Virus record (IMG/VR): IMGVR_UViG_3300045988_080644
From: a virus
Direction: 5' to 3' (one strand)
Length of the DNA: 64,000 bases
The notes beneath the pieces are model-generated. The model saw only the letters and a program-made list of their open reading frames with translations, did not search any database and was not told the DNA's origin. This document shows positions 3,888 through 44,605 of the stretch, in pieces. Made by a program: the position numbers and the translations under genes. Numbering within the stretch: position 1 is the first letter of the stretch; each line of letters starts with the position of its first letter.

Positions 3888-4577
3888 TTAAAGCAAGCTA
3901 TCGAGATCCAAATCATCCTTAGGAGCTTCATCTACTCCTGCTGTATCTGCGACAGCTTTATCTGGGTCAGTAGGAGTTGACTTCAAATACTCATCACGCT
4001 TACCCGCCTCATAATCAGACCAGAAGAGCTTTGGACCAATATAATTGTCACAAATAAATGCTTCTCCCTCCTTATTCAAAGCCAAGATACGTGGAATCTG
4101 AGCAACTACCTTACCGTCACGATTCTTACCTGTCAATTTAATTTTAATATCTGTATCAATAGCTGGTGTAGTTACTTTAATGAAAGTCTTTGCAACATCA
4201 TCAAAGCTCTTAAATTTAACACTCAGCTTTTGCATCTGTTCAAAACCTTTAGGGTTAAGAATCTGTGCAGTCTGTTTTACTATTGCCATAGTGGTCTCAA
4301 ATGAGGAAGCCATCTGAACTTTACCACCATTAGCACCATCAAATTCTGGTCGTACGTCATCACCATCTTTAGGGAAGAACAAATCTACACTAAAGTAGCC
4401 ATCCTCATTTTCATATTTAATGGAGAGCAACTTATAATGAGCATTAGGGTCTTTCTTACCGTTAAACTCACGAATTTCAGCTCCCTTAAACTTTACATCA
4501 TGGATTTCCCATGGTGCGAGTGGACGACGACTGTTACGAACTGCAGAATCAGATGAAATAGCAAAATTAAATGACAT
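3888..4577 (-). CDS. putative single-stranded DNA-binding protein
   Basis: Position between primase and helicase genes; acidic C-terminal tail DDLDLDSLL typical of SSB tips; no direct OB-fold evidence. Confidence 0.45.
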   Translation of the reverse strand: MSFNFAISSDSAVRNSRRPLAPWEIHDVKFKGAEIREFNGKKDPNAHYKLLSIKYENEDGYFSVDLFFPKDGDDVRPEFDGANGGKVQMASSFETTMAIVKQTAQILNPKGFEQMQKLSVKFKSFDDVAKTFIKVTTPAIDTDIKIKLTGKNRDGKVVAQIPRILALNKEGEAFICDNYIGPKLFWSDYEAGKRDEYLKSTPTDPDKAVADTAGVDEAPKDDLDLDSLL

Positions 4578-4658: not shown

Positions 4659-5219
4659 TTAGAGAGTATAACTCAGACCAGATAGGTCTGTAGATTCCTC
4701 TTCTATAGCATCCAAGTTAGTTATATCAAGCTCGTCTTCAATATTAACTAACTCTTTTGGAACCTCTTGTTCTTCAGGCATTTTGTCTCCTACAAGCCAA
4801 TAAATACCCTCATCTTCAGTTGGTTCCATTTTAAAGGTAGTACCATATCCTGCTAACTTCTTATTATTAGCACCTCCATATCGTACAGTATTCTTACCTG
4901 AAAGTAAATTACCTCCCTTAGATTTAAAAGCAGCATCTGTTCCAATCTTTGGAAGCAGCTGTTTGCCTTTCTTGTCATACTTGATGTCTATACGACAGTC
5001 TTCACAGACTTGTAATAAATCAACTGCTCCTTGGGTAAGCGTTAATTTAGTAGAATCAAGTGTTACAATAGGCTCAGGGTTTTCGTCTTTCTTAGTAGAA
5101 CTCTTTCTAGAGGTAGAAGTTTTCTTAGCAGTGTCTACCTTAATCTCATCTTTACCAATAAAAGTGATTTCTCCTGTTGCCTCATCAACAGAATAGTGCA
5201 TTACAATATCCAGCTTCAT
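4659..5219 (-). CDS. hypothetical protein (acidic C-terminus)
   Basis: ORF track; co-oriented and tightly packed. Confidence 0.6.
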   Translation of the reverse strand: MKLDIVMHYSVDEATGEITFIGKDEIKVDTAKKTSTSRKSSTKKDENPEPIVTLDSTKLTLTQGAVDLLQVCEDCRIDIKYDKKGKQLLPKIGTDAAFKSKGGNLLSGKNTVRYGGANNKKLAGYGTTFKMEPTEDEGIYWLVGDKMPEEQEVPKELVNIEDELDITNLDAIEEESTDLSGLSYTL

Positions 5220-5256
5220 ATATTCAATAATTAGTTAATTAGTTAGTTAAATAGTC

Positions 5257-7099: not shown

Positions 7100-7705
7100 T
7101 TACACAACCTTAATGGCATCAAAATTAGTATTAGCTAAATCTCCATTACGAAGAGCTTCTAATTCATCCCATCTATGATCTATTACAAAGTTACACAGAC
7201 TTACACAGAGAATATTATTCTCTCGAGCCCATTTAACTAATTCAATAATATGGTCATGAGTTTCCTGTTTCCACCTAATAGTCTTTCCATAGAAGCGATA
7301 AAAGTCTTCTAGACTATCAAACTTCTTAGAAACACTACGTATACCAACTGGATTCCCATTGATAAAACCGAATTGAGGATATTCTTCAAATAATTCTTTA
7401 CCTAATTCAAAAGAACACTTATAAAAGTCTTTTACAAGATTTCTATTAATAGGAATACTAAATAAATCTAATCGTTCACCTTTCTTAGGCAACTTATAAG
7501 ACTTTAATATTACTCCTACTTCTTGTAATCTAATTAATTGTTCCAATAGGCTTCCCTTTGCCTCTGATTGAAAATAAAGCTGGACAAGTTCTGCATCGTC
7601 ACCCTCTTGAGCGATGAGAATAATTTCTAGCAACAATAATTGATTTGCATCAATTTTATATTTTTCACAAAATACAAGTTGCTGTTTAAGTTCTAAATTC
7701 TTCAC
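7100..7705 (-). CDS. hypothetical protein
   Basis: ORF track; tightly packed. Confidence 0.6.
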   Translation of the reverse strand: MKNLELKQQLVFCEKYKIDANQLLLLEIILIAQEGDDAELVQLYFQSEAKGSLLEQLIRLQEVGVILKSYKLPKKGERLDLFSIPINRNLVKDFYKCSFELGKELFEEYPQFGFINGNPVGIRSVSKKFDSLEDFYRFYGKTIRWKQETHDHIIELVKWARENNILCVSLCNFVIDHRWDELEALRNGDLANTNFDAIKVV

Positions 7706-19699: not shown

Positions 19700-19774
19700 T
19701 GGACCACGGTGGGACTCGAACCCACGACATCTACCTTGCAAAAGTAGCGTTCTAGCCAGCTGAACTACGAGCCC
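19700..19774 (-). tRNA. tRNA-Ala(UGC)
   Basis: Anticodon arm CTACT-TTTGCAA-GGTAG; G3-U70 wobble and A73 present; the acceptor stem needs one bulged nucleotide. Confidence 0.75.
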
Positions 19775-20620: not shown

Positions 20621-21718
20621 TTACAATTCCTTAATATTGGAATCTTCAGACTTTCCTAGATATATCTCATTTATAGTACAATTACTTGTGCGAAATTGTT
20701 CTATAAAACGTATTTTACCAATAATCCTTGGAGACTTATCTTGATAATCACATATAGTAGGAATATATGCAGTCTTTAAACAATCCCAATGAGTTATGAC
20801 AATGTTAAATTTACAATGATAAGTTTCACGGTAATTATCTAAACAATGTCTTTCAATAGCTCTTTCGAATAAAGTATAGTCAAAAGGACCCGTCTTAAAC
20901 TCTCCTTGTGGTCCATCATTAGTATTTGATGGTTCTTCTAGAGTAAAATATGTATCCAAGTCCATAGAATAAGGATTGTACCCATTTCCATGTCTAGTTA
21001 AATATGGACGCATAACTAAGTATACCTCTGCATTTTCTAGACACTTTTCTTGGATTCCATTTAATCCTACTTTGCTAGGAGTACAATGAGGCATAAATCC
21101 TCTTTCCATATCTAGAAGGAGACCTTGAGAACCCTCCCAAATAACAGTATCAACCTCATCAGGATAATAAGTTCCAATTATAAAGGTCTCTGGGTGTTCT
21201 TTAATAAAGGTACAAGCCTCTTTAAAAAGATCATCTAATTCAGTGTCTCGTTCTAGATTGTGATAATCCCTTATAGTTTGTAGAATTACATCTGTATATT
21301 CATTTATATAAGGGCACATACGAGCACTATAAGTTACATTATCTTTGTTTCTTTTAAAACAAGCATGTATTCCTTTACCACAAGTTCCATTATACTTTAC
21401 TCGTCCATCCATAGAATCAGCTAATACATCATAAGGTGTAATAACTCTACAGTTAGGATTTATATATAACTTAGGAACTTCAATACCTTCATTAACTAAG
21501 ACCTTATACTCATTATAGATACATATCGGGTCAATGAATACTTCTTTATATAGACAAGTTGGTACTCCTAGTAAAACACCACTTCCCCAAGAAGAACATA
21601 CGTGTGATTTACCTTTATAAACCACACGATGCCCAGCTTGTGGACCTCCACTAAATCTAATGACAACAGGTTTATGGCTATTCATACATAACCATTGTAC
21701 TACATTACCTTTACCCTC
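20621..21718 (-). CDS. adenylosuccinate-synthetase-family (PurA/PurZ-like) enzyme, exon 2
   Basis: EGKGNVVQWL...RFSGGPQAGH, GTCGKGIHACF, WEGSQGLLLDMERG and LTRHGNGY align with the PurA motifs GDEGKGK, GGHNAGH, GTTGRGIGPAY, FEGAQGTLLD and STRVGAGP. The frame is open 33 nt upstream of the annotated ATG, back to a TAA. Confidence 0.75.
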   Translation of the reverse strand, partial: EGKGNVVQWLCMNSHKPVVIRFSGGPQAGHRVVYKGKSHVCSSWGSGVLLGVPTCLYKEVFIDPICIYNEYKVLVNEGIEVPKLYINPNCRVITPYDVLADSMDGRVKYNGTCGKGIHACFKRNKDNVTYSARMCPYINEYTDVILQTIRDYHNLERDTELDDLFKEACTFIKEHPETFIIGTYYPDEVDTVIWEGSQGLLLDMERGFMPHCTPSKVGLNGIQEKCLENAEVYLVMRPYLTRHGNGYNPYSMDLDTYFTLEEPSNTNDGPQGEFKTGPFDYTLFERAIERHCLDNYRETYHCKFNIVITHWDCLKTAYIPTICDYQDKSPRIIGKIRFIEQFRTSNCTINEIYLGKSEDSNIKEL

Positions 21719-33180: not shown

Positions 33181-33414
33181 TTATTTAATTGTTTCACCTA
33201 CTCTGTAATCGTCCCCATCACACACACGAATAGTTTTAATCTCATATCGATTAATTTTCTTATTATACATTCGTATCTTGAAAGTATAATGCTCTATATG
33301 TATTGTTTTTGATATTATTACCCCTCCCTTATAATTCAATATAGAATCTTTATATTGAACTGGAGGACCACAAGATACTAATAAAGATAAAATTACTAAT
33401 ACTATTACTTTCAT
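33181..33414 (-). CDS. small lipoprotein
   Basis: MKVIVLVILSLLVSC lipobox; start set at ATG 33414. Confidence 0.55.
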   Translation of the reverse strand: MKVIVLVILSLLVSCGPPVQYKDSILNYKGGVIISKTIHIEHYTFKIRMYNKKINRYEIKTIRVCDGDDYRVGETIK

Positions 33415-33425
33415 AATAATTAAAC

Positions 33426-33460
33426 ACAAAAATCCCTGAACTAAATAAATAGTCCAGGGA
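33426..33460 (-). terminator. rho-independent terminator
   Basis: Minus-strand hairpin TCCCTGGAC...GTTCAGGGA followed by TTTTTGTG. Confidence 0.6.
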
Positions 33461-33498
33461 TTAAAATAACGTTAAATAATAAAAACAGTTCTATGAAC

Positions 33499-33831
33499 TG
33501 GTGGAGCTAGACGGTACTGCCCCGTCGTCTTGCCTATTTGCATCAAAACGTTCTTACAGCATAGGTTTTAAAGACTTTCCTTGTCTTAGGGTTGACAAGA
33601 TTAACATTGTCAACTTCCACCACTCTGTTCCTAAAGTATACAGAGAACTTATAAGAAATGAAAGAATAGTGCACCTTTCTGTTCCTAAGCAAGTGCTGCT
33701 CGGCTTCTCAGGCTGCAATAGCGTAAGAAGCGGAAGTGTTATTTACTTCGCCAATTAATTTTTTACTTGTCTATCCAAGTTGTCTTGCTGTGTTTCTTAT
33801 CTCCTAGACAATCAAATACTAGTTTAGCCCC
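33499..33831 (-). ncRNA. ssrA: tmRNA (ssrA), one-piece
   Basis: 5' GGGGCTA pairs with 3' TAGCTCC (including G3-U70), followed by an encoded ACCA. The 3' end AGCTCCACCA is identical to the E. coli tmRNA terminus. Internal tag frame GGC GAA GTA AAT AAC ACT TCC GCT TCT TAC GCT ATT GCA GCC TGA gives GEVNNTSASYAIAA*. A hairpin plus T-run follows directly. Confidence 0.8.
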
Positions 33832-33962
33832 ATACTTAAAAGAGTCCTAAATTAGAACTCTTTAATATCTTCTGATTCTTCGGCTATATGGAAAACCCAT
33901 ATCGTACCAATCATCTGGATCTATTCTATCTTCATTACCCATAATTTAAAACTTAATTAATG

Positions 33963-34292
33963 TTAAAAACTAAATTGAATATCTCTATTGACATCTAATA
34001 ATCCTCCTTGCCAATTAGATTGAATATCCATACTGAACCATGTACCATATTTAGTTCTTGCAAACCAAATAAGATGATTGTCGTACTTAGGAATATAACA
34101 ACCTATAAAATAGTCAGTATCTCCATTCCATATCCAACTACAGTTAAGAGCACTATTTATTAAATGTATCTTTAGATGTATATCAGCCCTATTAAAAGGA
34201 ATTACTTTCTTTACATAAGCTTTATATAATCTACTTGGCGAACATTTACCATCGTCAAAGAAATTATAAATCTGTCTCTTTTTCGGAATCAT
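33963..34292 (-). CDS. hypothetical protein
   Basis: ORF track. Confidence 0.6.
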   Translation of the reverse strand: MIPKKRQIYNFFDDGKCSPSRLYKAYVKKVIPFNRADIHLKIHLINSALNCSWIWNGDTDYFIGCYIPKYDNHLIWFARTKYGTWFSMDIQSNWQGGLLDVNRDIQFSF

Positions 34293-35969: not shown

Positions 35970-36266
35970 CTATAATTTTTTTAATATTTTTACATTTTTA
36001 ATTAATGGTTCGCCATCAGTACCAGTTTCATCTAACAAATCACCAGTTACTAGATATTTATTGCCAGTAAAGTATTTTACATTATATATAAAATCATTAA
36101 ATGCCATCTCATTTGTTGGAAATGGAAGAACGGGAGAGTATGTTCCATTTATATTTTTATGAGCTTCATAAACTGAAACTCCAGGTTCTTCTCCAACTTT
36201 TTCGTTGCATTTCCAAATACATGATTTCTCATTTTTAGGTATTTCACCAAATCTATAGAATATCAT
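35970..36266 (-). CDS. hypothetical protein
   Basis: ORF track. Confidence 0.55.
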   Translation of the reverse strand: MIFYRFGEIPKNEKSCIWKCNEKVGEEPGVSVYEAHKNINGTYSPVLPFPTNEMAFNDFIYNVKYFTGNKYLVTGDLLDETGTDGEPLIKNVKILKKL

Positions 36267-44323: not shown

Positions 44324-44533
44324 GAAAATGTGCCTGAGGGTCGTTAATCCTCTCCTTTCTTAGTCAAGAGAACGTTGCAACTTGCCACTAAGACACACTG
44401 TTTTTGAGTTTTTGTAAGTCCTCCGACTTATTAAAGTTTTCGCATAATTTTGATAAGAATTCTACTTTCACAAGCAAAACTCTTTGAGCCTTATTCAATA
44501 ATTTAAAAATTATATAAAATTTAGGATAGAAAG

Positions 44534-44605
44534 GAAATGCGGACAGATTCGAACTGCCGACCTTCTACTCTACGGTAGATGCTCTAACCACTAAGCTACA
44601 CATTT
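44534..44605 (-). tRNA. tRNA-like gene with a 6-nt anticodon loop (identity undetermined)
   Basis: Canonical acceptor (AAATGTG/CGCATTT), D arm, 5-nt variable region and T arm (GGCAG-TTCGAAT-CTGTC), but the anticodon stem TCTAC/GTAGA encloses only CGTAGA. Confidence 0.5.

Follow-up and report, generated by a model that had tools for sequence, protein, structure and literature searches.

Transfer-messenger RNAs (tmRNAs), which release stalled ribosomes and mark the incomplete proteins for degradation, are known, accompanied by SmpB, in huge phages (Al-Shayeb 2020), from calls made with ARAGORN (PMC7162821); phage G and Mar_Mega_1 carry one tmRNA each (PMC12484599, PMC9723777). The element considered here lies in IMG/VR virus record IMGVR_UViG_3300045988_080644, in a stretch of 64,000 nucleotides (nt) that was analysed as a whole and is called the window below. 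The window is a replication module of a large gut phage (contigs to 180 kb), with helicases, a primase, exonucleases, a PurZ-like enzyme and ATPases. At positions 33499-33831 its minus strand carries what is, to judge from the sequence, very probably a functional phage-encoded one-piece tmRNA (ssrA), derived from a Bacteroidales host tmRNA and since streamlined. As phage-borne tmRNAs are already known, the existence of this copy is not surprising. A sequence-only reading had placed a phage tmRNA on this strand, beneath a spurious open reading frame (ORF) of the plus strand, and that call has held: the Rfam tmRNA model RF00023 aligns over its full length, related phages conserve the element, and the overlying ORF is shortened in two of them (L012 and L017).

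Three observations carry this account: the anatomy of the element, its homology to host tmRNAs, and the pattern of its conservation. The parts of the element, from its 5' to its 3' end, are these (PK, pseudoknot):

33499-33831, minus strand: the whole tmRNA gene, 333 nt, with G1 at 33831 and the 3' CCA end at 33499; limits from the RF00023 ends, the T-loop-independent detector described below and the homologues
33825-33831, minus strand: 5' strand of P1, the acceptor stem (GGGGCUA), pairing with 33503-33509
33812-33824, minus strand: analogue of the D-loop, AACUAGUAUUUGA, placed by alignment to the RF00023 consensus; the Segatella copri counterpart is GACUGGAUUUGAC
33786-33811, minus strand: 5' strand of P2, with P2a (UUGUCUA) at 33805-33811 and P2b/c (GAAACACAGCA) at 33786-33796
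33765-33780, minus strand: hairpin ACUUG-GAUAGA-CAAGU at the position of PK1, aligning to P4 of RF00023
33753-33764, minus strand: A/U-rich single-stranded stretch AAAAAAUUAAUU before the resume codon
33708-33752, minus strand: tag template GGC...GCC plus UGA, encoding (A)GEVNNTSASYAIAA* in the frame GGC GAA GTA AAT AAC ACT TCC GCT TCT TAC GCT ATT GCA GCC TGA
33703-33731, minus strand: P5 hairpin around the last tag codons and the stop, from single-sequence and consensus folds
33562-33702, minus strand: 3' domain in place of PK2-PK4, with hairpins at 33623-33645, 33591-33614 and 33571-33587
33510-33526, minus strand: T-arm GACGG-GGCAGUA-CCGUC, a 5-bp stem and 7-nt loop abutting the acceptor 3' strand
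33499-33509, minus strand: 3' strand of P1 (UAGCUCC), discriminator A and encoded CCA

The two ends of the element form the tRNA-like part. Read off the minus strand, P1 is a 7-bp stem, GGGGCUA/UAGCUCC, whose third pair is G3·U70; the pairing of GGGGCTA (33831-33825) with TAGCTCC (33509-33503), the wobble within it and the ACCA that follows (33502-33499) are as first read, and so is the GACGG/CCGTC T-arm at 33526-33510, with a loop, GGCAGTA, that lacks the canonical sequence. The 3' terminus AGCTCCACCA, likened earlier to that of the E. coli tmRNA, is the terminus of a Prevotella tmRNA (L064) as well. No anticodon arm is present; a long P2 helix joins the tRNA-like part to the mRNA-like part. 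The 5' strand of P2 pairs with 33530-33536 and 33545-33561 both in the single-sequence RNAfold structure and in the RNAalifold consensus; P2a (7 bp), P2b and P2c are found by the two programs alike, and the P2 3' strand, at 34 nt, equals the host length by inspection. The element has also been described as an ORF-free, GC-rich island. It is GC-rich: at 40.5%, where the window averages 31.4%, it falls in the top 3.4% of 333-nt windows. It is not strictly free of ORFs, since on the minus strand it is overlapped by two mechanical ORFs with TTG starts, 49 and 54 amino acids (aa) long.

Homology to the tmRNAs of the presumed host lineage was examined in two ways, by covariance model and by profile. 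RF00023, model positions 1-374, aligns full length to exactly 33499-33831 on the minus strand (34.3 bits, E 3.9e-12), in a local search of 33350-33980 only, with permissive filters; scaled to the whole window, the E-value would by our own estimate be roughly 4e-10. For the profile, a host set was assembled by scanning genomes for the Bacteroidota tag GENNYALAA, which gave 120 loci; in 102 of these ARAGORN called tmRNAs (~397 nt). The set includes S. copri (L063) and several Prevotella. An nhmmer profile built from host tmRNAs only matches the window best at 33764-33668 (E 4.9e-4), in the right orientation between the acceptor halves. It aligns phage G E [V] N N [TSAS] Y A I A A with host GENNYALAA, the differences in length being in-frame insertions. 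The resume codon GGC was chosen independently by the RF00023 alignment and the host profile, and their choice is that of the sequence-only reading, for codon and tag together. An 18-mer across the resume codon, AAAAAATTAATTGGCGAA (the 12-nt stretch plus GGCGAA), is exact in S. copri and in a Muribaculaceae metagenome-assembled genome (MAG), at the homologous site; the longest such match to shuffled controls is 14 nt. Only ~70% of positions can be aligned as identical to host tmRNA, against 49% for shuffled sequence. By the profile and the 18-nt match, then, the element is a homologue of bona fide tmRNAs of that lineage.

Relatives of the element were collected by a 3'-end pattern scan of viral contigs, which yielded 11 IMG/VR contigs; with GenBank MT835492 these make 12 loci. 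The same scan also picked up phage tRNA-Ala genes. Together the window and the 12 related loci represent nine distinct variants (alignment A2), the homologues being 88-100% identical. Conservation is uneven along the RNA. Identity is 100% over the first 51 nt and 95-100% over the last 63 columns; the 3' domain is ~90% identical; and 53 columns, from the pre-tag hairpin to the middle of the tag, are only 60% identical between tag types. The neighbouring DNA is 92.7% identical over the shared block. The 5' strand of P1 is unchanged in all nine variants.

Within the divergent segment the tag frame remains open, and it ends in Ala-Ala followed by TAA or TGA in every variant, never by TAG; the earlier remark that the tag of the window stops at TGA rather than TAG thus extends, with TAA as the alternative, to the whole set. 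There are three in-frame tag types, GEVNNTS[A/V]SYAIAA, ARVINMTPVSYAIAA and ARVINMTPAYQAAA, with predicted C-terminal peptide endings AGEVNNTSASYAIAA, AARVINMTPVSYAIAA and AARVINMTPAYQAAA. The nucleotides U(-5)A(-4) before the resume codon are kept in all three. RNAalifold, unguided, recovers P1, P2a/b/c, the pre-tag hairpin, P5 and the T-arm. Pair changes on both sides number three, all in the hairpins on either side of the variable cassette: the closing pair of the pre-tag hairpin goes from A-U to G-C between variant groups (columns 52/67), and P5 has two compensatory double changes, C-G to U-A (columns 105/131) and C-G to A-U (columns 108/128). In the third tag type a 3-nt deletion leaves both the frame and the P5 hairpin intact. 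Although the RNAs are 88-100% identical, they carry three tag types, and the divergence is sharply bounded; in the more elaborate scheme given below, the cassette would evolve fast or be exchangeable. Exchange of the cassette with host ssrA was tried as a source and rejected: a 12-mer of the second type matches two Bacteroidales MAGs, within the shuffled null. On a related contig carrying a type-2 allele (L010), ARAGORN calls a tRNA at 7491-7576 (minus strand) with anticodon UUA, the ochre-suppressor type.

This pattern bears on the idea that the element is a decaying, non-functional relic of a host ssrA taken up by the phage. A relic might be expected to look as this RNA does in some respects: its Rfam score is below threshold, it has an aberrant T-loop and a shortened pseudoknot region, and five of the nine variants have lost the encoded CCA. 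Yet conservation is higher in the tRNA-like ends (100% and 95-100%) than in either the remaining RNA (~90%) or the neighbouring DNA (92.7%), the hairpin changes are compensatory and the frame is unbroken in all variants. Decay is very improbable on this evidence. As to the 3' end, CCA is genomically encoded in four of the nine distinct variants and the other five have CUA, which implies post-transcriptional addition of CCA for those five.

Several findings weigh against a functional tmRNA. The T-loop GGCAGUA (33515-33521) departs from canonical UUCGAAU/UUCRANY at 5-6 of 7 positions, and from host UUCGAUU at 6 of 7; the near-universal form of this arm (GGUUCRAnUCC) is therefore absent, only C56 and R57 being kept. 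Host tmRNAs have UUCGAUU or UUCGAAU, and the 16 tRNAs called in the window have canonical or near-canonical T-loops. The interval at the site of PK1 is shorter than in S. copri (34 nt, there 48 nt) and accommodates only a hairpin of 5 bp and a 6-nt loop; a partner for the second stem was sought by inspection of the sequence, the alignment and the folds, and none was found, so that the proposed pseudoknot modelling ends with a PK1 that cannot be drawn. The 3' domain, ~146 nt long where that of the host has ~210 nt, allows one H-type pseudoknot to be drawn (GCACUU/AGGUGC with GGAAC/GUUCU), the pairs of which are invariant or changed on one side only; candidates for PK2-PK4 thus have no support from covariation. 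Substitutions and indels in this domain, across the nine variants, fall in loops or give G·U pairs. The number of PK2-PK4 differs among tmRNAs, hence they are not strictly defining. Finally, no homologue is less than 88% identical, so that P1, P2 and the T-arm are invariant and provide no evidence from covariation.

Searches with standard tools add to the points against. The 34.3 bits of RF00023 fall below its gathering score of 47, and Rfam at gathering thresholds reports no tmRNA in the whole window. Nor does RF00023 appear in Rfam E-value searches of 55 kb of relatives and of small regions of L001 and L018; these two carry other tag types, and their lack of a match indicates that the covariance-model hit draws on the tag region of the window allele, which is host-like. 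ARAGORN makes no tmRNA call at the element, by default or at thresholds of 95, 90, 80, 70 and 60%, while calling 16 tRNAs in the window; at 70% its false calls number 95 in the window and 901 in the genome of Prevotella phage Lak-A1. Thus the checks first proposed came out unevenly: ARAGORN was negative even with thresholds relaxed to 70%, and Infernal with RF00023 gave a full-length alignment at E 3.9e-12 that stays below gathering and is not matched in relatives with other tags. Two further tRNA genes of the window may be recorded here: at 44533-44605 (minus strand) ARAGORN calls a tRNA with a 2-nt anticodon, and at 48700-48771 (minus strand) Rfam finds one (35.7 bits) that ARAGORN missed.

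A detector that does not depend on the T-loop behaves differently. It asks for a GGG start, G3·U70, a 7-bp acceptor and an adjacent arm of 5 bp and 7 nt, the halves being 230-480 nt apart; over both strands of the window it gives one hit, which is this element. Its background is ~2 false hits per 1.08 Mb of Lak-A1, both AT-rich. Another hit, L161 10731-11032, was considered as a tmRNA and rejected as a false positive, being a tRNA. Three typical features are missing, then (T-loop consensus, PK1 and gathering score), while the defining ones are present, namely the alanine acceptor, the stacked T-arm, P2 and a tag template that ends in AA and has its stop codon in P5, and the element is best classed as a divergent tmRNA variant.

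The odd T-loop is not the only departure in the tRNA-like part. Where the D-loop analogue of host and consensus tmRNAs has GG, that of the phage element has AG; a tertiary contact that compensates for this is conceivable. The T-loop GGCAGUA is identical in all nine variants. Elsewhere, L007 carries at 4306-4330 (plus strand) a tRNA-Ala-type 3' end that neither tool calls; its T-loop is GGUAGCA, and it has no matching GGGGCTA upstream. Further tRNA-Ala-type 3' ends with T-loop AGCGUUA lie at L005 2223-2294 (minus strand) and L015 7319-7390 (plus strand). Non-canonical T-loops may recur in phage alanine-acceptor RNAs.

One way to account for such remodelling is to suppose that the RNA is a decoy or competitor, a tRNA-like molecule that sequesters SmpB, AlaRS or EF-Tu, or blocks the host tmRNA, and so shields TAG-paused phage proteins. 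The altered T-loop and D-loop analogue, with the missing PK1, could hinder entry into the ribosome; moreover, host tmRNA blocks the propagation of UAG-bearing genetic elements when UAG is unassigned (PMC6207430). A decoy could do without a tag template. Here, however, the open frame with its Ala-Ala-stop ending persists, as do U(-5)A(-4) and P5, through extensive sequence change and a 3-nt indel. The idea is accordingly improbable, if somewhat less so than decay, and a working tmRNA remains the preferred account.

The flanks of the gene, and the ORF that lies across it, comprise these features:

33486-33500 and 33431-33462, minus strand: two intrinsic-terminator-like hairpins directly after the gene
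33842-33860, minus strand: conserved hairpin GAGUUCUAAUUUAGGACUC followed by a U-run, ending 10 nt before G1
33501-33758, plus strand: opposite-strand ORF of 85 aa with a GTG start, spurious

A terminator hairpin after the gene had been noted from sequence; there are in fact two such sites, where 0.3 would be expected. The first, CAGTTC-ATA-GAACTG with its T-run, starts inside the CCA; the second (33431-33462) is the stronger. The second is kept in all variants, and the first is weakened in L008. The hairpin upstream of G1 is kept in nine of nine, including L017 and L008, in which the sequence further upstream is deleted or rewritten; one U·G pair becomes U-A. As it survives deletion of a putative 27-codon ORF that precedes it, this hairpin would be a leader or an upstream terminator.

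Could the plus-strand ORF be the real feature, and the likeness to tmRNA a coincidence? The ORF exists, and it measures 78-87 aa in seven of the nine variants. It begins with GTG, however, and in the relatives L012 (99% identical) and L017 (96% identical) it is down to 62 and 51 aa respectively; ~80% of the long-ORF coding capacity of the window is on the minus strand; and substitutions track RNA pairing and the minus-strand tag frame instead. The idea is scarcely credible.

Further points on the negative side come from the phage context. No SmpB gene was found in the window, and in two scans of viral contigs for SmpB (the second with at least 402 relatives) no tmRNA-bearing contig stood among the matches listed. 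Recoding of TAG is likewise not evident in the window: TAG ends 7 of the 56 ORFs of at least 120 aa, and ORF pairs joined by TAG number one, against seven for TAA and nine for TGA, so that there is no TAG excess. The sequence-only reading had taken the genome to reassign a stop codon; the window does not bear this out, and the sole hint of it is a tRNA with anticodon CUA at 60021-60094 (plus strand). That tRNA is of the amber suppressor type, is labelled 'Pyl' by ARAGORN, and lies on the strand opposite all other tRNAs.

How would such an RNA act? We infer that it is expressed, processed and charged, that it uses SmpB and that it has a link to suppression; the steps would be those of ordinary trans-translation (reviewed in PMC3985003). 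A precursor would be transcribed from the minus strand and end at the tandem terminators. RNase P would cleave at G1, and CCA would be added post-transcriptionally where it is not encoded; host AlaRS, acting through the G3·U70 acceptor stem, would then charge the RNA with alanine. Together with SmpB and EF-Tu, the charged RNA would enter ribosomes stalled at mRNA 3' ends, the SmpB being supplied by the host or by a phage copy outside the window. Translation would resume at GGC (33752-33750); the nascent chain would gain A-GEVNNTSASYAIAA and terminate at the UGA inside P5, leaving an Ala-Ala C-terminal degron, and the ribosome would be recycled.

The likely benefit to the phage is that ribosome rescue is sustained during infection, especially if the CUA suppressor tRNA causes readthrough of TAG and so generates non-stop complexes. 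Ueda 2002, as cited in the review PMC3985003, has nonsense-suppressor tRNAs leading to readthrough to mRNA ends and thus to more demand for tmRNA; stalls at unassigned UAG are resolved by tmRNA (PMC6207430). Rescue at unsuppressed TAG and retargeting of host trans-translation, the two roles suggested at first, stand as hypotheses beside it. The bounded hypervariable tag cassette and the co-occurrence of a CUA tRNA suggest that stop-codon suppression may be linked, in a way that can be tested, to how much ribosome rescue is needed in infection.

A more elaborate version of this scheme supposes a private, remodelled trans-translation: the tRNA-like domain is frozen, and its unusual pair of T- and D-loops is co-adapted to a phage SmpB encoded elsewhere; the fast-evolving or exchangeable tag cassette tunes recognition of the tagged products by host proteases or adaptors; and the whole is coupled to the amber suppressor, clearing non-stop complexes. 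This is conceivable, though unlikely, and the plainer account given above, a divergent tmRNA that serves ribosome rescue, is the one preferred.

Other features of the window do not touch the element. Two RAGATH-1 hammerhead ribozymes, at 53971-54055 and 54949-55054 (minus strand), score 81.3 and 69.7 bits against a gathering score of 56.3; they lie ~1 kb apart on the coding strand. The PurZ-like enzyme is a protein of 354 aa encoded at 20621-21685 (minus strand), which matches phrog_1211, '2-aminooxy adenylosuccinate synthetase', at E 2e-33; this hints that the phage may replace adenine by 2-aminoadenine in its DNA.

Comparison with other phages brought two further tmRNAs to light. A whole-genome scan of Lak-A1 located an unannotated one at MK250015.1 223026-223421 (minus strand; L174 25026-25421, minus strand), of 396 nt and 54 bits with RF00023, above the gathering score; its tag is DDEIDFRMAA, its T-loop is canonical, and ARAGORN calls no tmRNA anywhere in that genome. 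An intact SmpB is present in every one of the Lak-A, B and C genomes (in Lak-A1, for example, at 507067-507498). A huge-phage contig (L154/L155) has a 378-nt tmRNA at 4877-5254 (plus strand; RF00023, 68.2 bits), ~5 kb upstream of SmpB, again missed by ARAGORN. All three copies escaped the tool of the published censuses, and the copy described here escaped Rfam gathering as well; phage tmRNAs are thus probably under-counted.

Like the element of the window, the Lak-A1 tmRNA is one-piece and phage-borne, belongs to a large gut phage that is rich in tRNAs and has a Bacteroidales host, and was missed by ARAGORN; the two differ in that no sequence similarity between them is detectable. The window shares 4 of 95 ORFs with Lak-A1, so the phage is not a close relative of Lak and the two tmRNAs were probably acquired independently. 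Among the genes in common, a 98-aa gene at 35970-36266 (minus strand) has 78% protein and 82% DNA identity to a gene of Lak-A1/C1, in phages that otherwise have almost nothing in common; it looks like a small gene shared horizontally. Within 8 kb on either side of that gene in Lak-A1, B1 and C1 the element is absent.

The likeness to tRNA-Ala lies in the acceptor stem, the G3·U70 identity element and the T-stem. In contrast to tRNA-Ala, the element has no anticodon arm, and its halves stand ~300 nt apart with the tag template between them. The tRNA-Ala of the window itself (19701-19774) has T-loop GGUUCGAGUCC; that of the element is non-canonical.

The closest system is the ssrA of Bacteroidales (RF00023; S. 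copri L063 and Prevotella, with tag GENNYALAA). The possibility that the element is an attP fragment of host ssrA was set aside: both ends and the tag are present, and identity to the host is only ~70%. Against the host RNA, that of the phage measures 333 nt rather than ~397; its 3' domain is ~64 nt shorter, a hairpin stands for PK1, the T-loop is GGCAGUA rather than UUCGAUU, the D-loop analogue has AG rather than GG, and the tag is five residues longer, with L replaced by I. Change has been tolerated, that is, in the sequence of the T-loop, in PK1 and in overall length; it has not been tolerated in the acceptor stem with its G3·U, the stacked T-arm, P2, U(-5)A(-4), the Ala-Ala ending or P5. 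What phage and host have in common is correspondingly extensive: the G3·U70 acceptor, the discriminator A, the CCA and a T-arm stacked on the acceptor; the length of the P2 3' strand; the motif GCUGUAAGA of the phage, equivalent to GCAUGUAGA of the host; the 18 nt across the resume codon; and a tag that starts with GGC GAA, ends in Y-A-x-A-A and has its stop codon inside P5.

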